DNA of 43,091 nt from an uncultured Acidimicrobiia bacterium. GTDB taxonomy: Bacteria > Actinomycetota > Acidimicrobiia > Spongiisociales > UBA11373. The notes beneath the pieces were generated by a model. That model was not told where the DNA came from, searched no databases, and saw only the letters and a program-made list of their open reading frames with translations. Of the stretch, positions 2,905 through 22,318 are shown piece by piece; the first letter of the stretch is position 1; every line of letters starts with the position of its first letter. The position numbers and the translations under genes were made by a program. Location: positions 1 through 43,091 of the forward strand of contig CAZJRF010000001.1 in NCBI GenBank assembly GCA_964548475.1. The letters run 5' to 3'.

Positions 2905-4311
<1,407 letters not shown>

Positions 4312-10092: not shown

Positions 10093-13000
10093 TCACCGGG
10101 GGTGGGCGGCCAGCCAGGCGTGGCCTTCGGGACAGAAGCGGGCGAAGTCGCAATCGCGGCACGCCGGCGACGGGGTGGGGTCGCGTTCGCCCGCCGCCGC
10201 CCGGGCGGTCAGGTCGGCCAGGCGACGGCGGGCCCTTTCCAGCCAGGCGTCGTCCACCGCTTCGCTCACCTCCCGGAGCTCCCGGCCCCCCAGGTAGGCG
10301 AAGGTGACCCGGGTGTGGGGCGGCGCGGCATCGGCCAGGCCGGCGTCTGCCACCGCCACCGCGTAGGCCTCCAACTGCACCTGCCGGGCCGGATCGCGCC
10401 GCAAGGTGCCGCTCTTGAAGTCGACCACCTCCCAGCCGCCGTCGGCGTCTGCGTAGATCGCGTCGATGCGCCCGGCCACCCGGGCGTCCCCCACCGCCAG
10501 TTCGAAGGGGGCCTCCACCAGGATGGGTGAACGGGCGGCGAAGCGCGACGCGAGGAAGACGGCGAACGGATCGCCCCGCGTGTGCCGGCTCTCACCGGCC
10601 GGGAGGTCGTAGAAGGCCTCGCCGGCTTCCTCGACGGGGAGGTCTTCACGGTGGTGCAGTTCGATGCGCCGGTGTACCTCGATGCCGCGCTGCAGCCGAG
10701 GGGCGGGACGACGGGGCAGGCGGTCCACGGCGCTCCAGTGGAACCGAAGGGGGCAGGAGGCGAAGGTGACCAGGGCGGTGACGCTGGTACGGAAGAGGCG
10801 TGCTTCGTCGGTGTCCGCCAGGGGCGCGGGCAACTCCTCGAGCAGGCCGGCCAGCTCGGCGGCAGCCCGTCCGAAGGCGCCCACGATTCTCGCCCGGCGG
10901 GCGAGCCGGCGCGGGTAGGCAGGGTCGGCCACGGCTCGGCGCAGCGCGTCGAGCCAGCCCTCCCGGAAGAAGGGGTCGGGTGTGCCGGCTCTGGGATCCA
11001 GCCGCAGGGTTGGCGGCGGCTCCCCCGGTGCGTCGGTCAGGATGTGGTGCGCGACTCCTTCGACCTTCTGCGCCAGGTCGAACAGGGGGCTTTGCGTCCT
11101 GGGCAGCTTGCCACCGTACCAGTAGGCACCGGTGAGCATCAGATGGTGCTTGGCCCGCGTGACGGCCACATAGGCGGCGCGCCACTCCTGGTCGCCATGG
11201 CGGTGCTGGAGTTCCTCCTTGCGGTCGTCCGCATTTTCGGGCAGGCCGGGGAGCCAATCCCGGTCGAGGCGCAGGTGAGCGGGGAGGAACCAGGCATGGG
11301 CCGTCGGGTCCTCCAGGACGTGGGCTTGGCCGGGGAAGACCCCCTCCAACAAGGCGGGGAGCACCACCACCGGCCATTCCAGACCCTTGGCGCGGTGCAC
11401 GGTGAGCAGTACCACCGCGTCCTCACCGCTCAGCCTGGCGGTGTCGAGCTCGTCGTCGGCGCCCTCATCGAGCAGCAGGTCGAGGTAGTCGAGGAAGGCG
11501 TCGAGCGAGGGGGCGCCCTCCAGAGGGCTCCATGCCTCGGCCAGGTCGAGGAAGCGGTAGAGGTTGAGACGGGCGGAGAGGCGGGCGGCGTCGTCGAGAG
11601 CCTCGACCTCCGTCCAGGCCCCGGTCTCGTCGAGCACGCGGCGGCAGAGGGAGGCCAGGCTGAGGCCCTGGGCGGCCTCGAGCAGGCGGCGGTAGGTGTC
11701 CCGGAAGCCCTGCAGGCGGCGCTGTGCTTCGGGGGAGAACCCGGGGATCTCGTCGAGGTGGTCGAAGACCTCGAGAAGAGCCCGGCGGGGGCCTGCCTCA
11801 TCATTACGAAACGGCGAGCGTGGCTCCGCTCGCCGGGCGGCGGCCGGGGCCAGGTCGCCCAGGCCCAGGCGGTAGCGGCTGCCCAAGAGGACGCGCATCA
11901 AGGAGGCGTCGTCGTCGGGGCGGCCGAGGATGCACAGCCAGGCGTGCAGGTCGGCCACCTCGGGCACGTCGAGCAGCCCTCCCAGGGCGGCCACCTCGAC
12001 CGGGATCCCGTGTTGCTCCAAAGCCCCGCGCACCAATCCGATGTCGCGGTGGCGCCGGAAGAGGATGCCGGCGTCGCGCCACTCGATCTGCCCCGCCTCG
12101 TGCAGCTCGGCGAGCCTGCGGGCGATCCAGGAAGCTTCATCGACGGCGTTGTGGAACCAGGCCGTCTCCAGTTCCCCGGGCGGGGCCTCGTCGAGCGCCT
12201 GCAGGCGGTCGAGGCCGCTGGGCCGCGTGATCTTGCCTCTGACCCGGTTGGCCAGGTCGATGATGCGATGCGCCGACCGGCGGTTGTGGGAGAGGGTGAG
12301 GGTGGCCGCCGGGGTGCCGTCCAGCTCGGGGAAATGGACGGGGAAGGCGGCGAAGTTCTCCAGCGAGGCTCCCCGCCACTCGTAGATGGTCTGGTCGGGG
12401 TCGCCCACCGCCGTCACCGGGAAGCCGGACCCGAACAGCCGGCGCAGCACCTCCCGCTGGGCCGGGTTGGTGTCCTGGTACTCGTCGAGGAGGACCACCC
12501 GGTAGCGACTGCGCAGCCGGTCGGCTACCTCCGGGTGCTCGGCGAGCAGGCGGTGGCCGAGGGCGATCATGTCGGCGTAGTCGACCAGGCCCAGCTGCCG
12601 TTTTCGCTCGGTGTAGGCGCTGAGGACCTCGGCCATCTCGGCGCGCTTGAGTGTCACTTCGCCGTCCGGGTCGTCGGTGATCAGGTCGGCCGGCCGGCAG
12701 AGGTGGTCGCCCAGACGCCCGGCCAGAGCGCCCAGCTCACTCACCCGGGCGCCGGGGGAGGTGAGGTCGAGGGCCCGGCGAGGGGCAGCTCCCAGCGCGT
12801 CCCGCAGCAGCTGGCGGACGTAGCCGGGGGTGATTACCCCTGCCCCGCGCTCCACTCCCACCAGGGAGCCGAACTCGGCCAGCAGCCCGTGGGCGAAGCC
12901 GTGGTAGGTGTTCACCTCGACCTGGCGCCCGGCGGCGGACAGCTCGGGCAGGTGCAGCCGAAGACGGTCGGCCAGCTCCTCGGCCGCCTTGTTGGTGAAG

Positions 13001-13167
13001 GTGATGCCCAACGCCTCCTCGGGAGCGATCCCTTCGCGCCGGATGAGGGAGGCCAGGCGCAGCGCCATGGTGGTGGTCTTGCCGGTGCCGGCCCCGGCGG
13101 TGACCCGCAGCGGCCGGAGGGGGTAGTCGGCGACCGCCTGTTGTTCGGGAGTTGGGACCAGGCTCAC
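10093..13167 (-). CDS. adnB: ATP-dependent helicase-nuclease subunit, AdnB-like (UvrD-type SF1 motor + RecB-type nuclease with Cys cluster)
   Basis: TAGAGTGKTTT (Walker A), VLLDEYQDTNP (motif II), VHRAKGLEWPVV, nuclease GRIDAIY...VVDFKSG, terminal CRDCDFARFC. I place the start at GTG 13167, which overlaps the upstream gene's TGA (13164-13166). The track start is 13197. Confidence 0.85.
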   Translation of the reverse strand: MSLVPTPEQQAVADYPLRPLRVTAGAGTGKTTTMALRLASLIRREGIAPEEALGITFTNKAAEELADRLRLHLPELSAAGRQVEVNTYHGFAHGLLAEFGSLVGVERGAGVITPGYVRQLLRDALGAAPRRALDLTSPGARVSELGALAGRLGDHLCRPADLITDDPDGEVTLKRAEMAEVLSAYTERKRQLGLVDYADMIALGHRLLAEHPEVADRLRSRYRVVLLDEYQDTNPAQREVLRRLFGSGFPVTAVGDPDQTIYEWRGASLENFAAFPVHFPELDGTPAATLTLSHNRRSAHRIIDLANRVRGKITRPSGLDRLQALDEAPPGELETAWFHNAVDEASWIARRLAELHEAGQIEWRDAGILFRRHRDIGLVRGALEQHGIPVEVAALGGLLDVPEVADLHAWLCILGRPDDDASLMRVLLGSRYRLGLGDLAPAAARRAEPRSPFRNDEAGPRRALLEVFDHLDEIPGFSPEAQRRLQGFRDTYRRLLEAAQGLSLASLCRRVLDETGAWTEVEALDDAARLSARLNLYRFLDLAEAWSPLEGAPSLDAFLDYLDLLLDEGADDELDTARLSGEDAVVLLTVHRAKGLEWPVVVLPALLEGVFPGQAHVLEDPTAHAWFLPAHLRLDRDWLPGLPENADDRKEELQHRHGDQEWRAAYVAVTRAKHHLMLTGAYWYGGKLPRTQSPLFDLAQKVEGVAHHILTDAPGEPPPTLRLDPRAGTPDPFFREGWLDALRRAVADPAYPRRLARRARIVGAFGRAAAELAGLLEELPAPLADTDEARLFRTSVTALVTFASCPLRFHWSAVDRLPRRPAPRLQRGIEVHRRIELHHREDLPVEEAGEAFYDLPAGESRHTRGDPFAVFLASRFAARSPILVEAPFELAVGDARVAGRIDAIYADADGGWEVVDFKSGTLRRDPARQVQLEAYAVAVADAGLADAAPPHTRVTFAYLGGRELREVSEAVDDAWLERARRRLADLTARAAAGERDPTPSPACRDCDFARFCPEGHAWLAAHPR

Positions 13168-16163
13168 GGCAGGTAAGCCTCCCGGCCTTCGGGCCACTCG
13201 GGGCAGACCCGGCGCACCGCGCAGTTGCGGCAGTGGTCGCCGGGGGTGGGATCCCAGCGCTCGGCGCGTATGCCGGCGGCGGCCTGTGCCATTTGATCCC
13301 GGACCTCGTCACGCCGTTCCGGATCGAACGGACGGATGCTGACGCTCTTGGTGTGAGCGGCGGGGAACCACATCTCGGCCCCCGCCACCCGGCCCAATGG
13401 GCTCACCGCCGGGTCCGTCTCGGCGGCCAGCAGGTAGAAGCCGAGTTGCAGCGAGCAAGCGGCCTCGTCCGGCTTCACGGCGGTGCGGGCCGTCTTGTAA
13501 TCGACGATGTGCACCGCCGGCGGGTCGCCGCGCACCTCGATGCGGTCGGCCCGGCCCCGCCAACGGATCCCGTCGACCTCGAGGGCCAGGTTGTGCTCCA
13601 CCGCTCTCACCGATCCGGCGCTGGGCCACCGCTCGTACAGGTGGCGCAGCACTTCCTCGCCCCGTCGCCGCCAGGCATCGGCCCAGCCGCCCCCTCCGAA
13701 GGGGATGGGGTCCCAGATCTCGGCAAGGACGGCAAGGGCCCGGTCCAGGGTGCCGTGCGCCTCCCCGGCGGCCAGGGCCTCGCCTTCGACGGTCTCGAGC
13801 ACCTGGTGGACGAGCGATCCGATCGAGGCGTACACCGAGCCCTCGTCGGCCACGTGTAGCCAGCGCTCGAAGGCGTAGCGGCGGGGGCACTGCCGGTAGG
13901 AGTCGGCCTGGCTGGGGGAGAGGGCGAGGCCGGTGGGGATCAGGCCGTGATCGGGGCCCCGCTCGCGCACTCCGGCGCACTCCTCCGCGGGGCGTGCTCG
14001 CCAATCGCCCGGGCCGACCAGGGCCTGCAGGACGGCGAGGCGCCGGGGGGGAGGCTGCTCCGGGTCGGCGAGGCGGCGGCGCAGCCAGGCCTCGGCCTCG
14101 AGCGGGGTGGAGGGCTCGGCCGTCTCGGCGGGGGGGCGGGCGGCCTCGGCCACGGTGGGGACGCCGGCCACCGGGGCGAGGAAACGGCTGGGCATGCCCC
14201 GGCCTTCCTCGAAGCCGGCGGCAGTGCAGGTCCACACCACCCGCCGCCGGGCCCGGCACATGGCGGTGTAGGCCAGGCGGGTCTCTTCTTGAAGGCGGAA
14301 GCGGGAGTAGGCGCCGGTCGCCCCGGGCAGGTAGGGCGACAGGTGGCGCACTCCCAGCAGGGACTCGCGCAGGCGCAGGTCGGGGAACACCCCTTCGACC
14401 GCGTCGGCGATGAACACGAGGTCGAACTCCACCCCCTTGGCCTGATGCAGGGTGGCGAGGGTGAGGCGGTCCTCCTCGGGCGGGGCGTACTCGAGCAGGG
14501 GGGTGGCTTCGAAGTCCTCCGCCTCGCTCCAACGCAGGTAGTCGGCCAGGGTGGCGCGGGGGTCGCGCTCGTGGAGGCGTCCCACCACCTGGGCCAGGGA
14601 GGACCAGGCGGCGCGCTCTTCCTGCCGATGGGGGGAGCCGACCAGTTCGGGCACGTGGGGCAGGGTGGACCACAGGTGCCACAGGCCCTCGGCGGCGGGC
14701 CGGCGCACCGCCCAGGCCGGGTCGGAGATCAGGCCGGCGAGGGCCTCGCCTCCGGGAAGGCGGCGGCGGATTACCTCGTTCCACGGGTCGCCGGTGCGGG
14801 CCTGTTCCCGTTCGAGCTCCCGTACGGCCGACAGGGTCAGGCCGGCCGGGGCGCCGAGGAGCAAGCGGCGCAGGGCGGTCGCTCGCTCGGAGGGGGGGCC
14901 GGCGGCAGCGCGCACGCAATCGAGCACCACCCGTACCGCGGGGTGGTCCACCAGGCGTTGGTCGGGCTCCTGGTGGGGGATGCCGCGCCGTTCCAGGGCA
15001 CGGGAGAGCTCGGGGAGGAAGCGACGCTTGCTGCGCACCAGCACGGCCATGTGGCGGTAGGGGACGCGATCGCGCAGGTGCGCCCGCTGGACCTCGGCCG
15101 CGATCCACTCGGCTTCGTGCGTCTGCTGGTCGAAGGCGTAGGTCTCCACCACTCCCCGACCGGGGGCCGGCTTGACCGGCCCGGCCTCGCCGGGCAGCTC
15201 GCCTCCGGCGGTGATCCGCACCGCTGCCGCCAGGATCTCGGCGGGCACCCGGAAGGAGGTGGTGAGCACGATGCGTCGCGCCGGACGGCCCTCGGCGTCC
15301 GGGAAGGACTCGGGGAACTCGGCCACGTTGGTGAGGGCCGTCCCCCGGAAGGAGTAGATCGACTGGTAAGGGTCGCCGGCCACCGTCAGGTTGCGGTGGG
15401 GCAGGTAGAGCCGCTGCAACAGCCGGGCCTGGGCCAGGGTGGTGTCCTGGTACTCGTCCACCAGGACGCAGCGGAACCGGCCGGCCACCCGGGCCCGCAT
15501 CTCGTGGTCGTCGAGCAGTTCGACGGCGACCGTCTGCAGGGTGCCGTAGTCGATTCGTCCTTCGGCAGCCAAGGCCGCGCGGTAGCGCTCCAGGAAGCCG
15601 GGCAGGGCACGCCAGTCGTCGCGCTGCCGGGCTCGAGCGGCCAGCCCGTCGGGGCCGACAAGGTTCTCCTGGCAGCGCAGAACAAAGTCGGCCACCTCGC
15701 GAGCCAGGGTGCTGGTGGCCAGGAGGCCGCGGAAGGGTAGGGGCCAGGCCGCCGGGTCTTCGGCGGCGAGCAATTGCCTGACGATCTCGACCTGTTCGGG
15801 GCCGGTGAGCAGCGCGGGCAACCCGCCCCATCCGGCGAGCCGGTCGGCGTGAGCCTCGATGAGGCGGAAGGCGAACGAGTGGAAGGTGGAGACCGGGATC
15901 ACCGTGAAGGAGCGGTTCAGGCCGGCGGCGACCCGGGAACGGAGATCGGCCACCCCCCGGCGGGAGAAGGAGAGCAGGAGCAGTTGCTCCGGGCTGATCC
16001 CCCGGTCTCGGATGAGGTGGAGGGCCCGCCGGGCCAGGAACTCGGTCTTGCCGGCCCCGGGTCCCGCCACCACCAGCTGGGGGCCCTCGGCCGCGGCGAC
16101 GGCAGCGTCCCAACCGTCGGGATCGACCCGGGTCTCGGGGATAGCCGCTGCCATGGACCCCAC
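13164..16163 (-). CDS. adnA: ATP-dependent helicase-nuclease subunit, AdnA-like
   Basis: VAGPGAGKTEF (Walker A), VLVDEYQDTTLAQ, LHQAKGVEFDLVFI, nuclease GRADRIE...IVDYKTAR, terminal CRNCAVRRVCPEW. ATG 16154, preceded by GGTGGGG, is a likelier start than GTG 16163. Confidence 0.85.
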   Translation of the reverse strand: MGSMAAAIPETRVDPDGWDAAVAAAEGPQLVVAGPGAGKTEFLARRALHLIRDRGISPEQLLLLSFSRRGVADLRSRVAAGLNRSFTVIPVSTFHSFAFRLIEAHADRLAGWGGLPALLTGPEQVEIVRQLLAAEDPAAWPLPFRGLLATSTLAREVADFVLRCQENLVGPDGLAARARQRDDWRALPGFLERYRAALAAEGRIDYGTLQTVAVELLDDHEMRARVAGRFRCVLVDEYQDTTLAQARLLQRLYLPHRNLTVAGDPYQSIYSFRGTALTNVAEFPESFPDAEGRPARRIVLTTSFRVPAEILAAAVRITAGGELPGEAGPVKPAPGRGVVETYAFDQQTHEAEWIAAEVQRAHLRDRVPYRHMAVLVRSKRRFLPELSRALERRGIPHQEPDQRLVDHPAVRVVLDCVRAAAGPPSERATALRRLLLGAPAGLTLSAVRELEREQARTGDPWNEVIRRRLPGGEALAGLISDPAWAVRRPAAEGLWHLWSTLPHVPELVGSPHRQEERAAWSSLAQVVGRLHERDPRATLADYLRWSEAEDFEATPLLEYAPPEEDRLTLATLHQAKGVEFDLVFIADAVEGVFPDLRLRESLLGVRHLSPYLPGATGAYSRFRLQEETRLAYTAMCRARRRVVWTCTAAGFEEGRGMPSRFLAPVAGVPTVAEAARPPAETAEPSTPLEAEAWLRRRLADPEQPPPRRLAVLQALVGPGDWRARPAEECAGVRERGPDHGLIPTGLALSPSQADSYRQCPRRYAFERWLHVADEGSVYASIGSLVHQVLETVEGEALAAGEAHGTLDRALAVLAEIWDPIPFGGGGWADAWRRRGEEVLRHLYERWPSAGSVRAVEHNLALEVDGIRWRGRADRIEVRGDPPAVHIVDYKTARTAVKPDEAACSLQLGFYLLAAETDPAVSPLGRVAGAEMWFPAAHTKSVSIRPFDPERRDEVRDQMAQAAAGIRAERWDPTPGDHCRNCAVRRVCPEWPEGREAYLP

Positions 16164-16200
16164 CGTATCGCACGGGTGTGACGCGGGAGGTGCCGCGGAA

Positions 16201-16677
16201 TCAGAAGGCCAGCGGCTCCTGGTGGGGGAGGGCGGTGCCGTCGTGGAGGAGGTGGACCACCCGCAGCCCTCTCTCCTCGAGGGCGGGGGCGATCAGGAGG
16301 GCGCGGTGGCAGTGCTCGGGCCGCTCTTCGGCACACAGCAGGGCCACTCCGGCCTCGGAGGCCATGGCGGCCACGTGGACCAGGGCGGCCTGGAAGCGAG
16401 GCGAGCGGCGGATGGCCGGGTAGTCGGGGCCGCCGTCGGGCAGCAGCAGGGCCGGGTCGTGGGGCCGGCCGCCCAGTGCGTCGCCCATCCAGCGGTAGCC
16501 GAAGCCGGCGGCGGCGGCCAGTTCTTCCAGGGGCCCGCGCGTGAACTCGGGAGCGTGGCGGGAGAAGGGCTGCGAGCGGACGTCGATGATGGTGGCCACC
16601 CCGTGCCGCTCGAGCACGGCTGCTACCTGAGAGAAGCCGGCCCGGCCGTGGCCGATGGTGCAGATGGCGGCGGGCAT
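16201..16677 (-). CDS. DUF488 family protein
   Basis: ICTIGHG...IIDVRSQPFSRHAPEF...GYRWMGDALGG...LLCAEERPEHCHRALL matches the DUF488 signature. I place the start at the internal ATG 16677 (MPAAICTIGHG). The track ORF runs to 16725. Confidence 0.82.
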   Translation of the reverse strand: MPAAICTIGHGRAGFSQVAAVLERHGVATIIDVRSQPFSRHAPEFTRGPLEELAAAAGFGYRWMGDALGGRPHDPALLLPDGGPDYPAIRRSPRFQAALVHVAAMASEAGVALLCAEERPEHCHRALLIAPALEERGLRVVHLLHDGTALPHQEPLAF

Positions 16678-16732
16678 CGGGCCTCCGGGGGTCGGGCGGG
16701 TCCCATTCTGCCCTGAGACGGCCACGTGATGC

Positions 16733-17527
16733 TCAATCGCCGGCGCCGTCGCCCGCGTCGGCGGTCTCGTCCACCCCGGCCCAGGCCGGGCAGATGCTCT
16801 TGAAGGAGCACCAGTCGCAGAGCGGGCCGGGGCGGGGCGGGAAATCGTCGCGCTCGAGGGCCCGTTCGATGGCCGCCCACAGGGCGCGCAGCTGACGGTC
16901 CATGGCCTGGAGTTGGCCGGGGTTCACCTCGAGTTCGTACACCGTGGGGCCGTTGAGGTAAATCAGCCGCAGCAGGTCGGGGGCCCGCCCGGTGCGACGC
17001 CGCACCAGCAGGGCGTAGATCTTGAGAGCGAAGAAGGCGGGGAGGGCGTATTGCTCCGGTGGGGCCTTGCCGGTCTTGTAGTCGCTGATGATGAGGCGGC
17101 CATCGGGGGCGGTCTCCATGCGGTCGAGGATGCCCCGGATGGTGATGCCGTCTAGGTCCTCGAGCAGGTCCATCTCCCGGGCCAGGGGCTCGAAGGAAGA
17201 GGGATCCTCGACCGCGAAGTAGTTGGCCAGGGTCCGCAGGCTCTCCAGGCCCCAGGCGCGCTCTTCCTCGACGTCGGCGAACAGGTCCGGGTACTCGGAG
17301 TCACGTATCTCGACCCAGGCCCGGCGGAAGAGGTCGTACAGCGCCTCGGGGGTGCGCTGCTCCGGGGGCAGGTCGAACAGGCGCTGCAGGGCGAGGTGGG
17401 AGGTGGTTCCCCGGGCCTGGTAGGGAGTGGGCGGCTCGGGCAGCCGGTCGATGGCCCGGAAGCGGAACAGCTGGGGGCAGTGCTTGAAGTCGCCGGCCCG
17501 GCTGGGTGATAGGGTCTTGAGTCCCAT
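16733..17527 (-). CDS. RecB-family PD-(D/E)XK nuclease with C-terminal Cys cluster (mycobacterial Rv2119-like, Cas4-like fold)
   Basis: N-terminus LSPSRAGDFKHCPQLFRFRAIDRLPEP, ISDYKTGK (D-x-K), C-terminal CDWCSFKSICP. I place the start at ATG 17527 (MGLKTLSPSR). The track start is 17557. Confidence 0.82.
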   Translation of the reverse strand: MGLKTLSPSRAGDFKHCPQLFRFRAIDRLPEPPTPYQARGTTSHLALQRLFDLPPEQRTPEALYDLFRRAWVEIRDSEYPDLFADVEEERAWGLESLRTLANYFAVEDPSSFEPLAREMDLLEDLDGITIRGILDRMETAPDGRLIISDYKTGKAPPEQYALPAFFALKIYALLVRRRTGRAPDLLRLIYLNGPTVYELEVNPGQLQAMDRQLRALWAAIERALERDDFPPRPGPLCDWCSFKSICPAWAGVDETADAGDGAGD

Positions 17528-17566
17528 GCCGGGGACTCTAGGCCGGGCGAGTGACACGGTTGTAGT

Positions 17567-18898
17567 TCACACTTTCCCGGCGACCGGCCGGCGCCGGGGC
17601 GCCAGGTCGCCGTCCCACACTGCGTAGGCCAGGGTGGCGGCGATCATCACCGCCGCGGCGGTGGCGAACATCGCCTTGTAGCCAAAATGGAGGATGACCC
17701 AGCCCAGCATGGGTGAGCCCACCAGGATCCCCGCGTCGAGAAACACAGTGAAGACGGCCATGGCCGACCCCCGCTCCTCAGGCGAGCTGCGCTCCACGAC
17801 GCCGGCGAACAAGATGGGGAAGGCATACCCGAGCCCGCCTCCGCAGAGAACCCCGGCGACGACGGTCCAGGCGGTGGAGGAGCCCAGGGCTGTGACCAGG
17901 AACCCAGCGGCGATGGCCGCCAGGGAGGGGTAGGTGACCCGGCCGCGTCCTACCCGGTCGGGGAGCCACCCCCCAAAGATCCGTATTGCCACTGCCGTGC
18001 TCGCGTAGGCCCCGAAGAAGAGGCCCACCGAGCCGATCCCGGTGGTGTCCACATAGGTGCGCATGAAGGTCCAGTAACTGGTGAGAGTGACGCACATCCA
18101 GAAGGCCATCATCCAGAGGGGGAGCAGGTCGCGCTGGATCAGGGCGCGCCGGAATCCCCCTCTTCGCCCGATCGGTACGCCGGCCGCGCCCTTCGGGCGC
18201 TGCTCCGGCAGGCGCATCGAGAGCAGCAGGCCGGCGGCGGCGAACCCGAGCGCCGCCCAGAGCACACCGTGGAATCCCCCGGCGGCGAGGACCACATCGC
18301 CCACCCAGCCGCCCACCGCGGCGGGCAGCATGCTGGAGGCGGCGAACAGGGCCAGCCCCTGCGTGCGCCGCGTCTCGGGCACCTGGTCGGCGCCGTAGGT
18401 GGAGACGGCGGTGAAGGTGAGGGCGGCCGCTACCCCGTGCAGGATCCGCACTGCCACCAGCCAGGGCCCCACCGCGGTCACGGTGAAGTAGAGGGGGATG
18501 GCGATCACGCTCAGCAGCCCGCCGGCCAGGATGGCGGGACGCCGGCCGCGGCGGTCCATGGCATTGCCCACCCCGGGCCGGATGAGTATCGAGGCCACCG
18601 CCGTGGCGGCCACGATGAGACCGATGGTCACCTCGTCGGCTCCCAGGTCGGTGAGGAAGCGGGGGAGGTGAATGAACATGAAAAACGACAGGCCTTGCAG
18701 CAGGTTCACCGACGCGGCCAGGACGAGGGGGATGGTGAGGAGCCGGACCCGCGGCGGCAGGGAGGGGTGCACGGCGCCGGAGCATATCCGTTCGTGAAGC
18801 CCCGTCTGCTGGTCCGGAGAGCACCCGGCTGAGACTCGCGAAAACCAGATAGGGCCCGCGAAAAGCAACCATCCGTCGCGCTTGACGCCGGGGTCCAT
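17567..18898 (-). CDS. MFS transporter
   Basis: The hydrophobic profile fits about 12 TM segments. MFS motif A is present (GNAMDRRGRRP). ATG 18898 follows GAAGGTAGAGAG. GTG 18772 is an alternative start that would remove 42 residues. Confidence 0.85.
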   Translation of the reverse strand: MDPGVKRDGWLLFAGPIWFSRVSAGCSPDQQTGLHERICSGAVHPSLPPRVRLLTIPLVLAASVNLLQGLSFFMFIHLPRFLTDLGADEVTIGLIVAATAVASILIRPGVGNAMDRRGRRPAILAGGLLSVIAIPLYFTVTAVGPWLVAVRILHGVAAALTFTAVSTYGADQVPETRRTQGLALFAASSMLPAAVGGWVGDVVLAAGGFHGVLWAALGFAAAGLLLSMRLPEQRPKGAAGVPIGRRGGFRRALIQRDLLPLWMMAFWMCVTLTSYWTFMRTYVDTTGIGSVGLFFGAYASTAVAIRIFGGWLPDRVGRGRVTYPSLAAIAAGFLVTALGSSTAWTVVAGVLCGGGLGYAFPILFAGVVERSSPEERGSAMAVFTVFLDAGILVGSPMLGWVILHFGYKAMFATAAAVMIAATLAYAVWDGDLAPRRRPVAGKV

Positions 18899-18956
18899 GG
18901 CTCTCTACCTTCTGTTTACCTTCTCCCCAGGTAAGCAAGAGCCCGGGGAGGTGGCA

Positions 18957-19177
18957 CCGGCGGACCGCCCCCGCAAGGGGGACGGTCGGGCGGAGACCAA
19001 GAAGCCGCCCGGTCGCCGCCGGGCCGGCGTCCGGACCTAGGAACCGGATGACGGGAAGCCGAGAGGGGTGCAAGACTCTCCCGGCGGCTCAACGCCCAGG
19101 CGTTACCGAAAGGGCGCCGAGGCGAAGGGTTGAGGCCCCGAGGGGGCTGCGGCTCAGGCCAAGGCTTCCTCGGGGTC
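18957..19177 (+). other. structured, apparently non-coding segment (three-way junction plus nested helices), strand inferred from loop chemistry
   Basis: Outer helix 18957-18963/19016-19022 encloses hairpin 18964-18986 (ACCG-CCCCC-GCAA-GGGGG-A-CGGU) and hairpin 18988-19010 (GGGCGG/CCGCCC). A 9-bp helix pairs 19135-19143 with 19168-19176. No protein-like ORF covers it. Confidence 0.25.
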
Positions 19178-19362
19178 TCGCTTTTCTGCGTTCATCTTCG
19201 GTGACTCCGCGGTCCCGTTCGTGATATTGCTCGATGGCCGCAACGACGGGGGTGCGCTGGGCGGGTCCAAGCGGCGGTTGGGGAGCCAGCGTTCTCGGGA
19301 GCCCGATCGTGCCACCCCGCGAAAACACTTTCAGAGTCGCGAAAACCCAGCAGCGCCGGCGG

Positions 19363-19391
19363 TTGACGAAGCAGAGAACACCCCCTACATT
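19363..19391 (+). promoter_or_regulatory. candidate sigma-70/SigA-type promoter: TTGACG - 17 nt - TACATT
   Basis: The -35 TTGACG (19363-19368) is followed by an exactly 17-nt spacer and the -10 TACATT (19386-19391). It sits in a locally AT-richer patch. The predicted TSS is near 19397-19399, about 330 nt upstream of ATG 19728. Confidence 0.4.
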
Positions 19392-19397
19392 GTGTGA

Positions 19398-19727
19398 TGT
19401 CGGCGGAGAGATCCACCGGCCCGCGGAGGACCGGCAACGGTTCACCGTGGCGCTCTCGTCGAGCCCCGCAAGGGGCCGCAGCGGAACCCGAAAGGGGGAC
19501 GCACCGGGGGGCCTTCGGGCCTTTCGCGACGGAGTGAACCGGCACCGGACTTCGGCCCGGAGTCGGACCGGAGTACTCGCAAGGGTGCTTCGGGACCAGG
19601 GTGCCCGCAAGGGTGCTCTGGGAGGAGCCCCGAGAGGGTGGAAGCCTCGGCAGAAGCTCTCTCGGGGTTTCTCGCGTCCGGGCCGCTTCATCCCGCAGGC
19701 GCCACCCCGGCTCTCTAGCATGGCGCC
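19398..19727 (+). ncRNA. candidate long structured 5' leader or cis-regulatory RNA upstream of the bPH-SHOCT gene, family unknown
   Basis: Seven hairpins capped by GCAA, GAAA or UUCG lie at 19429-19442, 19463-19476, 19487-19496, 19510-19521, 19545-19560, 19573-19588 and 19601-19616. A 15-bp helix pairs 19622-19636 with 19659-19673. The loops are stable tetraloops only on the plus strand. Confidence 0.35.
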
Positions 19728-20348
19728 ATGGGTTACCCGAAGCGTTTGCTCAGCGAAGGCGAAGAGATAGTCCGCGAGTTCCGGCCCCACTGGCGCATGC
19801 TGGTGGTGCCGCTCGGCTGGACGCTGCTCCTCGGGGCAGCCGTGGTCCTCACCTGGATCTACCCGCCCGACCAGGCCTGGTTCGACTGGGGTGTCACCGG
19901 CATCGCCGCGGTGGCCTGGCTGGTCCTCGGCCTCTACCCGCTGATCTCCTGGTTCTTCACCCTCTACGTGCTCACCAACGAGCGGCTGATCGCTCGCCGC
20001 GGGGTGCTGGCCCGGCACGGCCTGGAGATTCCCCTCGAGCAGATCAACGATCTGACCTTCACCCAAACGATCCTGGAGAGGGTGCTTCGCTCCGGTGATC
20101 TGTTGATCGAGTCGGCGGGGACCCAGGGACAGAGCCACTTCAGCAACATCCCCGAGCCCGAGGAGTTCCACAGCCTGCTTTACCGGGTGCGGGAGGCTCG
20201 CACCATGGCCCTGGAGGGCATCAAGCCGGTGCCGCAGGGCGACGACACGGTCTCTCGTCTGGAGCGCCTGGCCCGGCTGCAGCAAGACGGGATGATCAGC
20301 CGTCAGGAGTACGAGGAGCAGAAGAAGCAGATCCTCGGCCAGGCCTAG
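19728..20348 (+). CDS. membrane protein with bacterial PH domain (YdbS/YdbT-like, bPH_2) and C-terminal SHOCT domain
   Basis: LLSEGEEIVREFRPHW is followed by two TM helices, then YVLTNERLIARRG...INDLTFTQTILERVLRSGDLLIES (bPH). The C-terminal RLERLARLQQDGMISRQEYEEQKKQIL is SHOCT. Confidence 0.85.
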   Translation: MGYPKRLLSEGEEIVREFRPHWRMLVVPLGWTLLLGAAVVLTWIYPPDQAWFDWGVTGIAAVAWLVLGLYPLISWFFTLYVLTNERLIARRGVLARHGLEIPLEQINDLTFTQTILERVLRSGDLLIESAGTQGQSHFSNIPEPEEFHSLLYRVREARTMALEGIKPVPQGDDTVSRLERLARLQQDGMISRQEYEEQKKQILGQA

Positions 20349-20992
20349 TCGGCGCCGCTCCGTACCGTTCCCGGGAAGATGAGGTGGAGCGACGGGGGGT
20401 CGGGGGCCTCCGCCTGCTCAATCCGTCCTCCCATGGCGGCGACCAGCCGTCTGCTAAGCGGGGAGACGGGGGGAAGAGCGTTGTCCCCGGTGGTGATGGT
20501 GAAGCGGCAGTCCCCGCCCCCGCGGCGTACCACCACCCGGACCTCGCCGGCAGGGGAAGCCGCCCGTCCGAGGATTCCGGCCAGGGCCCGGCGCAGGCCG
20601 GGGGCGGGGAGGTGAAGCTCCCCCAGGTCGTCGGGCACGTCGGCGATGATGACCGCGTGGCCCCCGGTCTCCCCGGCCTGTCGGATTAGATCGGCCACCT
20701 CGGGAGGGAGCAAGTGGGCGGTGTCCCCCGGCGCGGCGGCAGCCGGCAGCTCGTCGAGCAGGCGGCGCATCTTCTGGGCCTGGGCCAGGGCCGCCTGCAG
20801 GAGAGCGGCCAGGTCCGGGTCATCGGGAGCCAGCGCGGTGCGGGCCAGGGTCTGCAGGGCGCCGAGCACGGTAGTGAGAGAGGTGCGCAGGTCGTGATCC
20901 AGGGCGGCCACGAGCTCGGAGCGCAGTGGTGCCTCACCTTCAGGCGGGGTCGGCCCTCCGGGGGTCGGGGCGGGGACGGCGAAAATCGGCAT
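20345..20992 (-). CDS. soluble HisKA-domain protein with degenerate HATPase_c domain (histidine kinase-like)
   Basis: H-box LVAALDHDLRTSLTTVLGAL with the following dimerisation helices. The catalytic region lacks the N-box Asn (AGILGRAAS) and the G1/G2 glycine boxes (TITTGDNALPPVSPLS). There is no TM or sensor domain. I place the start at ATG 20992. The track start is 21046. Confidence 0.7.
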   Translation of the reverse strand: MPIFAVPAPTPGGPTPPEGEAPLRSELVAALDHDLRTSLTTVLGALQTLARTALAPDDPDLAALLQAALAQAQKMRRLLDELPAAAAPGDTAHLLPPEVADLIRQAGETGGHAVIIADVPDDLGELHLPAPGLRRALAGILGRAASPAGEVRVVVRRGGGDCRFTITTGDNALPPVSPLSRRLVAAMGGRIEQAEAPDPPSLHLIFPGTVRSGAD

Positions 20993-21122
20993 CTCCCGTC
21001 TGCTTCGGCCCGCCCGGGCCGCGCTTGAGCCGAGATGGAAGCACACCGAAGCAAGCCGGGACGGGCTCAGCTCGAAGGGCCGCGGCGACGAAGCCCGCCC
21101 CGCGGCCGGCGAGAGTCTGTGC

Positions 21123-21370: not shown

Positions 21371-22318
21371 TTGGTGGTGCGCGACTATACCGCCGGGGGC
21401 CGGGGCAGGTCGATTCGGATACGCTCCCCAATCATCGGCAAATCACAGACCGCCGTCAATCCGGCCAACGCGGTCCTCAACTACCTGTACGCACTGCTGG
21501 AAGCCGAAGCCCGCATCGCCTGCCTGACCGTCGGCTTGGACCCCGGCGTCGGCATCCTCCACACCGACCATCGCAGCCGCGACTCCCTCGCTCTGGACCT
21601 GATCGAAGCCGTCCGCCCCGACGTTGACGCCTACCTGCTCGGGCTGCTCCGCGCCCACGTGTTCGGTGCCACCGACTTCGCCGAGACCCGCCAAGGCGCA
21701 TGCCGGGTCCTCGCCCCACTCACCCACGAGCTGGCCGCCACCACGCCCACCTGGGCGGAACGGCTCGCCCCCATCACCGAACAGGTCGCCCGGCAGCTTG
21801 CCGACACATCCCCAGCCACAATTCGCACCCCCACCCCACTCACCCAGACCAACCGCAAGGCCGCAGTGCGCCAGCAACGCCGCGGTCCCACCTCCCGCAC
21901 CCGGAGGCCGCCCACACCAGCCGGCCACTGCCAGGAGTGCGGCATACAAGTGGAGTTGCCCCAGAGGCGGTGCAGCGACTGCGACCGCGCCTACCGCACC
22001 AGCCCAGGCCATCCAAGGCTCACCCGACTCGCCGTCCTCCGCGCTGAAGGCCAAGACCCCGCCCACGGCGGTGACGCCGGACTCAGGCGCGGCCAGACCA
22101 ACGCCCATCACGTGCGAAAGGCCGCCGCCTGGGAGCAAGCCAACCCACGGCCCGACCCGGACGTGTTCCGCCGGGACATCCTCCCCGGACTCCAACACTG
22201 CAGCCCGCAGAAGATGGCCGACGCCACCGGGCTCTCCCGCCCCTACTGCGCCCTCATCCGCCAAGGCACCTACATCCCACACCCCAGACACTGGGAGGCA
22301 CTCCGCCAGATGACATGA
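21371..22318 (+). CDS. Cas1-family protein lacking the N-terminal domain, with C-terminal Zn-ribbon/HTH-like extension (possible pseudogene or Cas1-solo relic)
   Basis: AVNPANAVLNYLYALLEAEARIACLTVGLDPGVGILHTDHRSRDSLALDLIEAVRPDVD reproduces the Cas1 catalytic-domain signature (N-x-x-L-N-Y-x-Y, E, GxxH, D-L-x-E). Homology starts about 25 codons into the ORF. Roughly 150 N-terminal residues of a normal Cas1 are absent. There is no good start or SD. The tail has CQECG...CSDCD and GLSRPYCALIRQGTYIPHPRHW. Confidence 0.6.
   Translation: MVVRDYTAGGRGRSIRIRSPIIGKSQTAVNPANAVLNYLYALLEAEARIACLTVGLDPGVGILHTDHRSRDSLALDLIEAVRPDVDAYLLGLLRAHVFGATDFAETRQGACRVLAPLTHELAATTPTWAERLAPITEQVARQLADTSPATIRTPTPLTQTNRKAAVRQQRRGPTSRTRRPPTPAGHCQECGIQVELPQRRCSDCDRAYRTSPGHPRLTRLAVLRAEGQDPAHGGDAGLRRGQTNAHHVRKAAAWEQANPRPDPDVFRRDILPGLQHCSPQKMADATGLSRPYCALIRQGTYIPHPRHWEALRQMT
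21406..21420 (+). repeat. left copy of exact 15-nt direct repeat CAGGTCGATTCGGAT
   Basis: Identical 15-mer at 25390-25404. The flanking bases differ on both sides. It lies just upstream of where Cas1 homology begins. Confidence 0.5.

Follow-up and report, generated by a model that had tools for sequence, protein, structure and literature searches.

Several kinds of bacterial RNA are made from genes of their own. The RsmX/RsmY/RsmZ and CsrB/CsrC small RNAs (sRNAs) of Gammaproteobacteria come from stand-alone genes driven by GacA/UvrY: they are paralogous and sometimes in tandem, share an activating sequence upstream of a sigma-70-type promoter, have bodies of very different lengths with variable numbers of hairpins, and end in a hairpin terminator. 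6S RNA and Ms1, the latter also actinobacterial (Mycobacterium, Streptomyces), are non-coding, measure a few hundred nt, and are each transcribed from a promoter of their own at a syntenic locus. For Ms1 that locus is marked by the genes of a HAD-IB hydrolase and an oxidoreductase (PMC9130861). The raiA, OLE, ROOL and GOLLD RNAs are highly structured, rich in tetraloops, and encoded by stand-alone genes rather than acting as riboswitches; among them, the raiA motif occurs in Acidimicrobiia as a single-copy RNA (PMC10861870). Here we analyzed a 43,091-nt stretch of DNA from an uncultured Acidimicrobiia bacterium (contig CAZJRF010000001.1, hereafter the window; G+C content about 70%). The proteins encoded in the window have their nearest matches in uncultured Acidimicrobiia. 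A long intergenic region in the window lies between an MFS transporter gene on the minus strand and, on the plus strand, a gene for a membrane protein with bPH_2 and SHOCT domains (bPH-SHOCT). A first-pass annotation made from the sequence had described part of this region as a long, cis-regulatory 5' leader of bPH-SHOCT. We find instead that positions 18837-19680 very probably hold two tandem, stand-alone genes for structured non-coding RNAs (ncRNAs), units A and B, and that unit B, the RNA taken for a leader, is most likely not one.

The units share features with the Rsm and Csr RNAs (paralogous copies, an upstream sequence ahead of a sigma-70-type promoter, bodies of variable hairpin number and a hairpin at the end) and differ from them in others. 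Rsm and Csr RNAs carry GGA loops, whereas the hairpins here are capped by GNRA and UUCG tetraloops; the identity of a Csr/Rsm-type protein sponge was rejected, since the loops of unit B lack repeated GGA motifs. The GacA box is palindromic, whereas the box upstream of the units, CGCGAAAA, forms a direct repeat. Unlike the Rsm and Csr systems, the family described here has a 3' hairpin whose sequence is conserved class-wide, with a fixed G.U pair and an A.C mismatch, and no conserved regulator gene nearby. Searches with Rfam 15 recovered no match at the gathering score in the window or in 12 related loci, and none in the whole window at E <= 0.5. With the region searched at E <= 10 and short- and long-form members of the family at E <= 1, only chance-level fragments of microRNAs or riboswitches appeared. 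The raiA, OLE, ROOL and GOLLD models had no match in the window or in the 12 related loci; with the 6S models (RF00013 and related), 18700-19900 was searched to E <= 10 and the whole window to E <= 0.5, in both cases with no match. In our literature searches we found nothing relevant on sRNAs of Acidimicrobiia, on their RNA biology or on the CGCGAAAA box. The first-pass impression of a large structured RNA of a class that could not be named is thus borne out: the RNA covaries and matches no Rfam 15 family. We regard it as a family that has not been described before. Its general kind, structured bacterial RNAs with genes of their own, is known, but its modular construction is unusual.

Composite promoters and structure of units A and B

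The promoter of unit B consists of TTGACG (19363-19368), a 17-nt spacer and TACATT (19386-19391) on the plus strand. It had been proposed in the first-pass annotation, and is the sole sigma-70-like match in 18700-20500, where 0.0 matches are expected from shuffled sequences; orthologues conserve it as TTGACT or TTGACC followed by TACATT. Upstream stand two CGCGAAAA boxes on the same strand (19318-19325 and 19338-19345), 20 bp apart and, counted from the predicted start, near -79 and -59. The composite promoter of unit A lies 480 nt further upstream and has the same geometry: boxes at 18837-18844 and 18857-18864, again 20 bp apart, then TTGACG (18882-18887), an 18-nt spacer and TACCTT (18906-18911), all on the plus strand. 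A consensus scanner missed this promoter because TACCTT matches TATAAT at only three of six positions. Its orthologous forms include TTGACG with TACTTT (L001) and TTGACG with TACATT (L003), where L-numbers denote loci of our comparison set, made up of species loci and metagenome contigs. The four boxes of the two units are the only occurrences of CGCGAAAA in the window, against 0.41 expected.

The order of the module is therefore two CGCGAAAA boxes, TTGACN, a spacer of 17-18 nt and TAnnTT. We followed it in 80 loci encoding bPH-SHOCT orthologues, one per species and nearly all labelled Acidimicrobiia, using a strict pattern of boxes, -35 and -10 hexamers that does not demand the C before GCGAAA. 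The pattern found 91 units on the strand of the bPH-SHOCT gene and three on the opposite strand. All 91 units contain CGCGAAA, initial C included, and their second box always stands equally far from TTGAC. T at the first two positions and G at the third position of the -35 hexamer, and the final T of the -10 hexamer, each occur in more than 90% of them. With TTGACA-like and TAnnnT hexamers conserved in orthologues and a spacing within the 16-19 nt expected of the sigma-70/SigA type, this is a promoter of that type. The boxes lie on the same helix face and could be read by an activator or by the alpha subunit of RNA polymerase, which would make the promoters of the units strong or specifically regulated.

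Unit B is a predicted RNA of about 278 nt (19398-19675, plus strand), whose transcript would start at 19397-19399 and end a few nt after 19673, just past a long terminal hairpin. The segment 19398-19684 folds with a minimum free energy (MFE) of -180.9 kcal/mol (z = -6.29; none of 200 shuffles folds as well; frequency of the MFE structure in the ensemble 0.20). The z-score of 19398-19740 is -5.6 on the plus strand and -0.9 on the minus strand. The strength of the fold on the plus strand only indicates that the structure is real and strand-specific. MFE and consensus folds consist of chains of local hairpins together with two multi-branch domains, with GAGA, GCAA, GAAA, UUCG or CUCG in the loops. 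The hairpins listed in the first-pass annotation were all recovered: GACCG-GCAA-CGGUU (19429-19442), GCCCC-GCAA-GGGGC (19463-19476), CCC-GAAA-GGG (19487-19496), GGCC-UUCG-GGCC (19510-19521), two nearly identical GCAA hairpins (19573-19588 and 19601-19616) and the long helix pairing 19622-19636 with 19659-19673. The remaining hairpin of that list, CCGGAC-UUCG-GCCCGG (19545-19560), contains an A.C mismatch in the window and is perfect in L003-L005.

Covariation supports this structure. Unit B was aligned with 10 orthologues, all close relatives, on a structure derived from the window sequence itself. Pairing is kept in 93.2% of cells, as opposed to 36-52% when the partners are slid against each other. 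Changes on both sides of a pair occur at 15 pairs and in 34 cells; none of 500 shuffles reaches the number of cells, and seven of 500 reach the number of pairs. Compensatory change, which the first-pass annotation had named as a check on its structure, is thus present. Among close relatives, conservation begins directly after the -10 hexamer and ends a few bases past the long hairpin (...CUCGGGGUUUCUCGCGUC). The alignment holds 1- and 2-nt indels that break the reading frame, and an overlapping 178-aa open reading frame (ORF) has no Pfam match; on these grounds coding potential was rejected for the region.

Parts of unit B are locally duplicated. Tandem Repeats Finder reports 1.9 copies of a 23-nt period at 19465-19507, and two nearly identical CGCAAGGGUGCU hairpins occupy 19573-19616. 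This suggests that the RNA bodies grow by duplication of hairpins, which would fit the wide range of sizes, 92-830 nt, seen across the family.

Unit A is a predicted RNA of about 270 nt (18918-19188, plus strand; both ends are placed by inference), and its fold is likewise significant (z = -4.84 for 18918-19192). It ends in the hairpin GAGGCCCCGAGGGGG...CCUCGGGGUCUC (19132-19179; nhmmer match 19132-19186, E = 3e-8) followed by the tail GCUUUUCUG (19180-19188); a terminator-like structure with a T-run was called at 19162-19178. The next element is the promoter of unit B, with no gene between. Orthologues of unit A were found in L001-L005, L007, L008, L160 and L164. Units A and B fall in one similarity cluster. 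An nhmmer search of the window with the single sequence of unit B did not detect unit A, which took a profile to find.

The terminal hairpin and the family across Acidimicrobiia

Both units end in a hairpin of the form CCCCGAG...CUCGGGG-UUUC, which in the family at large reads GRAA-CCCCGAGAGGG...CUCGGGG-UUUC followed by a short pyrimidine or U tail. In unit B it is GAGGAGCCCCGAGAGGGU...GCUCUCUCGGGGUUUCUC with an apical loop of the UNCG type (19622-19673, plus strand; nhmmer E = 3e-18), followed by GCGUCC (19674-19679). A profile of this hairpin finds exactly two copies in the 43-kb window. In an alignment of 125 distinct copies (alignment A2), among them the hairpin of unit A, 15 of 22 pairs have changed on both sides, in 174 cells, and none of 500 shuffles reaches any of five measures of covariation. 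Pairing stands at 87%, compared with 38-63% for slid partners. Three C-G pairs never vary, 124 of the 125 copies retain a G.U wobble and 84 have an A.C mismatch.

The constraint on this hairpin exceeds what a terminator needs. It most likely ends the transcript and would be a weak intrinsic terminator, with a better tail in unit A: in most copies the tail has only 3-5 U in 8 nt, it is T-rich in 76 of 223 copies, and a terminator scanner passes the hairpin of unit A but not that of unit B. The sequence UUUCYCGCG is found in 120 of the 223 tails. At the DNA level TTTCYCGCG (19668-19681 in the window) resembles the reverse complement of the box (GTTTTCGCG) plus one base; it may be a site in the DNA, one side of an RNA helix (19537-19547 with 19677-19686) or a chance resemblance.

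The resemblance between tail and box, and the multi-copy, palindromic and GC-rich nature of the element, could speak for conservation at the level of DNA, as a repeated extragenic palindrome or a site of protein binding or recombination, with no functional RNA. We regard this as extremely unlikely. Orientation is strictly biased, with 111 of 113 hairpins on the strand of the gene and always behind a complete promoter. Read from the opposite strand, the near-universal G.U wobble would turn into an A.C mismatch, as would many other G.U pairs; the fold of unit B is significant on the plus strand only, and the compensatory changes preserve helices.

Sequences corresponding to 19315-19688 of the window are conserved upstream of the bPH-SHOCT gene in more than 50 of the 80 species loci, often in 2-3 copies, so that the hairpin-rich RNA, whose absence from orthologous loci would have spoken against the first-pass structure, recurs there. 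To these loci we added a metagenome scan that used the promoter pattern alone, with no RNA sequence included, and yielded 120 contigs. A terminal hairpin follows 110 of the 119 promoters that fit the stricter pattern, at a distance of 92-830 nt. Metagenome matches lacking the -10 hexamer have no hairpin behind them and look like chance. Species loci and metagenome contigs together gave 231 terminal hairpins, spread over 152 loci, as well as 201 complete units; roughly every second locus has 2-3 copies. The hairpin pattern had no match in 2.9 million viral contigs, and five matches of the promoter pattern there look like chance; an origin from phages or mobile elements was rejected.

The bodies between promoter and terminal hairpin measure 92-830 nt and fall into at least 40 similarity clusters, and only the promoter and the 3' hairpin are common to the members. 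The shortest members, of about 95 nt, consist of one hairpin and the terminal hairpin. Near the other end stands a 765-nt member in L143 with more than 20 tetraloop-capped hairpins (z = -11.6 on the plus strand and -4.6 on the minus strand), a large ornate RNA.

Subfamilies have features of their own. Short members of 95-160 nt (L094, L104, L111, L112, L117 and others) share a second hairpin that does not vary, CCGGGGGCCCGCUUUCCCGG, whose 10-nt loop is conserved and which is absent from both units of the window; they are usually followed, about 100 nt further on, by a unit of 360-450 nt with its own promoter. A subfamily of 670-760 nt (L143:1411-2175, and also L089, L128, L167 and L182) has the same promoter and 3' hairpin.

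With members that reach 765-830 nt, the family recalls raiA, OLE, ROOL and GOLLD in size and ornament. raiA, however, has a single copy and a fixed architecture, whereas only the promoter and the 3' hairpin are fixed here. As an identity for the units raiA was rejected: its model has no match, and a single-copy RNA contrasts with the multiple copies per locus.

Another candidate identity is an Acidimicrobiia version of Ms1 or 6S, in which case the RNA would be abundant and bind to RNA polymerase. Its size is near that of Ms1 (about 300 nt), the lineage is actinobacterial, the promoter is strong and conserved, the chromosomal position is conserved, and the survey of Ms1 does not mention Acidimicrobiia (PMC9130861). 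Against this, no 6S or other Rfam model matches, and our family hidden Markov models (HMMs) had no match on the Ms1 of Streptomyces coelicolor, taken from the supplement of the same survey and the sole Ms1 sequence compared; blastn gave only chance matches of 20-24 nt. The units are flanked by an MFS or PDDEXK_1 gene and, across from it, by bPH-SHOCT, where Ms1 synteny would call for genes of a HAD-IB hydrolase and an oxidoreductase. In the fold, independent hairpins follow one another, unlike a rod with a central bubble and paired 5' and 3' ends, and multiple copies of 92-830 nt are unlike either RNA. We rejected 6S for want of a model match and of a rod-like fold, and Ms1 for its missing synteny, the absence of an HMM match to the S. 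coelicolor sequence and the dissimilar fold; a counterpart of either seems quite unlikely.

The start of bPH-SHOCT and the case for a leader

The bPH-SHOCT gene (19728-20348, plus strand) encodes a 206-aa protein with matches to PF03703 (E = 2.4e-16) and PF09851 (E = 1.3e-5), and its N-terminus, MGYP, is kept in homologues. In Mycobacterium, where starts have been mapped, the signature of leaderless messenger RNAs (mRNAs) is a -10 hexamer placed 6-8 nt ahead of the start codon, which doubles as the transcription start. We know of no leaderless transcriptome for Acidimicrobiia. The bPH-SHOCT gene has the hexamer TAGCAT at 19716-19721, 6 nt before the A of ATG 19728, and this putative -10 element recurs: in 74 of 77 species a TAnnnT begins 12-14 nt ahead of the A of the ATG, and two others have CACAAT at this place. 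The 6-7 nt between hexamer and ATG contain no purine-rich ribosome-binding sequence, in agreement with the first-pass remark that no Shine-Dalgarno sequence precedes the gene. As in the leaderless mRNAs of Actinobacteria, a TANNNT thus ends 6-7 nt before the ATG and a Shine-Dalgarno sequence is missing; the difference is that starts were mapped in Mycobacterium, and the bPH-SHOCT start is read from sequence. The gene most likely has a promoter of its own and a leaderless start, which would account for the missing Shine-Dalgarno sequence.

Between the RNA gene and this promoter lies a spacer (19680-19715, plus strand) that varies among orthologues and has no significant fold. From hairpin to ATG, orthologues have about 35-200 nt with no conserved sequence other than the TAnnnT hexamer by the ATG. 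The first-pass annotation had pointed to GGCGCC at 19698-19703 and 19722-19727 as self-complementary elements that could mask the start. Both hexamers are there, but the masking is not borne out: 19685-19760 has a z-score of -0.19, and the hexamers are not conserved in orthologues.

These observations bear on the reading of the RNA as a long 5' leader of the bPH-SHOCT mRNA, a riboswitch-like or protein-binding attenuator in which the hairpin is a regulated terminator and GGCGCC masks the start. Such a leader would explain why unit B has the orientation of bPH-SHOCT and why a unit lies on its strand within 150 nt of its ATG in 47 of 77 species; the hairpin is terminator-like with a weak U-tract, and the missing Shine-Dalgarno sequence is also in its favour. 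Yet the conserved RNA ends at the long hairpin, and the -10 hexamer is conserved 6-7 nt before the ATG in loci with and without units: TAnnnT still precedes the bPH-SHOCT ATG in seven species whose upstream 1.7-4 kb contain no RNA unit. We found no alternative pairing to the terminal hairpin of the kind expected of an expression platform. The units are tandem, each with its own promoter, and some have no co-directional gene downstream. The unit of L081 has a divergent PDDEXK_1 gene on one side and, on the other, MscS and pirin genes that converge on it, and is therefore nobody's leader. A gap of 300-2400 nt separates the bPH-SHOCT gene of 11 species loci from the nearest unit, and only 44 of the 120 contigs selected by promoter contain that gene. 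Bodies of 92-830 nt in at least 40 clusters also leave no common aptamer core. A leader is accordingly very unlikely, and the cis-regulatory role proposed in the first-pass annotation is not upheld.

In an intermediate reading, the units are autonomous RNA genes that, being strongly transcribed and leaky at the terminator, also set the expression of bPH-SHOCT, either through read-through or because they interfere with the leaderless promoter that overlaps them. The conserved position of a unit directly upstream of bPH-SHOCT and the weak U-tracts are consistent with it, as are compact loci (L009, L030, about 3960-4000) where the bPH-SHOCT -10 hexamer lies only 15-20 nt past the terminal hairpin of the RNA, so that the leaderless promoter overlaps the terminator. 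Transcriptional interference may occur in such loci. A dual role is nevertheless improbable, given that the promoter signature of bPH-SHOCT is the same in the seven loci with no unit upstream, that the linkage is lost in many metagenome contigs and that the spacer has no conserved element.

The stand-alone reading of both units is carried by the conservation and geometry of the promoter module, the covariation, the strand specificity, the tandem and gene-independent occurrence and the absence of an Rfam match. Several points weigh on the other side. The transcription start, the 3' end and the abundance of the RNAs are predictions, and a protein-binding, trans-acting role is argued by analogy. 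An autonomous RNA gene does not explain the close linkage of unit and bPH-SHOCT noted above, nor why the motif CGCGUC is kept after the hairpin (as UUUCYCGCGUC) in 120 of 223 copies. The weak U-tract makes read-through into the bPH-SHOCT gene possible. Finally, the MFE fold pairs the tail after the hairpin of unit B (19677-19686) with 19537-19547, a helix that has one-sided changes only and would need transcription beyond the hairpin.

Neighbouring genes and a proposed role

On the other side of the units, the divergent MFS transporter gene is annotated as an ORF of 443 aa (17567-18898, minus strand). Its first ~50 codons (18749-18898) overlap the CGCGAAAA boxes and the -35 and -10 hexamers of unit A, and the Pfam MFS_1 match begins at residue 64. 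Because the ORF runs across the promoter of unit A and the domain starts so late, the call is probably some 50 codons too long, with the true start near 18748 (gene 17567-18748).

Further genes on the minus strand (10093-17557) encode two AdnA/AdnB-like proteins with UvrD-helicase and PDDEXK_1 domains (1034 and 999 aa), followed by a stand-alone PDDEXK_1 nuclease of 274 aa with a C-terminal cluster of cysteines. The gene for the stand-alone nuclease is the most conserved divergent neighbour upstream of the RNA array, found in 47 of the 80 species loci, and is present in 51 of the 120 metagenome contigs. Convergent to bPH-SHOCT is a gene (20345-21046, minus strand) for a 233-aa protein with a HisKA phospho-acceptor domain and no recognisable ATPase domain, which adjoins bPH-SHOCT in only two of 80 species loci. 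A dedicated regulator encoded nearby was considered and rejected: neither this HisKA-only gene nor the NarL-type response regulator of the window is syntenic in other species. An ORF at 21371-22318 (plus strand) has a Cas1 match confined to the C-terminal part of that domain (profile positions 184-268 of 283), followed by a long tail rich in Pro, Arg and Thr; it could be the remains of a Cas1 gene or a solo gene resembling Cas1. Tandem Repeats Finder reported no CRISPR-like array in the window, and searches for transfer RNA, transfer-messenger RNA and CRISPR found none there.

We propose that the bodies of the RNAs are chains of GNRA- and UUCG-capped hairpins set between a dedicated promoter and a near-invariant 3' hairpin, and that bPH-SHOCT would be transcribed separately, from the TAnnnT hexamer 6 nt before its ATG. 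The RNAs might act in trans, as abundant protein-binding or scaffold RNAs, a role that we put forward tentatively by analogy with known systems and that is somewhat doubtful. Since bodies range from one to more than 20 hairpins and nothing but the promoter and the 3' hairpin stays constant, the 3' hairpin could be a common handle for a protein, and the variable body could give each paralogue its specific properties.

Taken across the class, the units appear to belong to an undescribed, Acidimicrobiia-wide superfamily of modular ncRNAs, each with a two-CGCGAAAA promoter and a near-invariant 3' hairpin around bodies that run from 92-nt two-hairpin forms to ornate RNAs of 750-830 nt, usually as tandem paralogues between PDDEXK_1 and bPH-SHOCT. 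On balance we lean towards a new class of abundant regulatory or ribonucleoprotein RNAs with a transcription factor and a protein partner of its own. Two corrections of annotation follow for the locus: bPH-SHOCT is apparently leaderless, and the MFS reading frame is probably overextended. The signature of two CGCGAAAA boxes, promoter and invariant 3' hairpin can be searched for in any genome or metatranscriptome. It offers a candidate activator site, a candidate protein-binding hairpin and natural size variants of 92-830 nt that reveal which parts are dispensable. Oceans, lakes, soils and activated sludge all harbour abundant Acidimicrobiia, and this locus yields for them a class-wide RNA family that lies outside Rfam 15.

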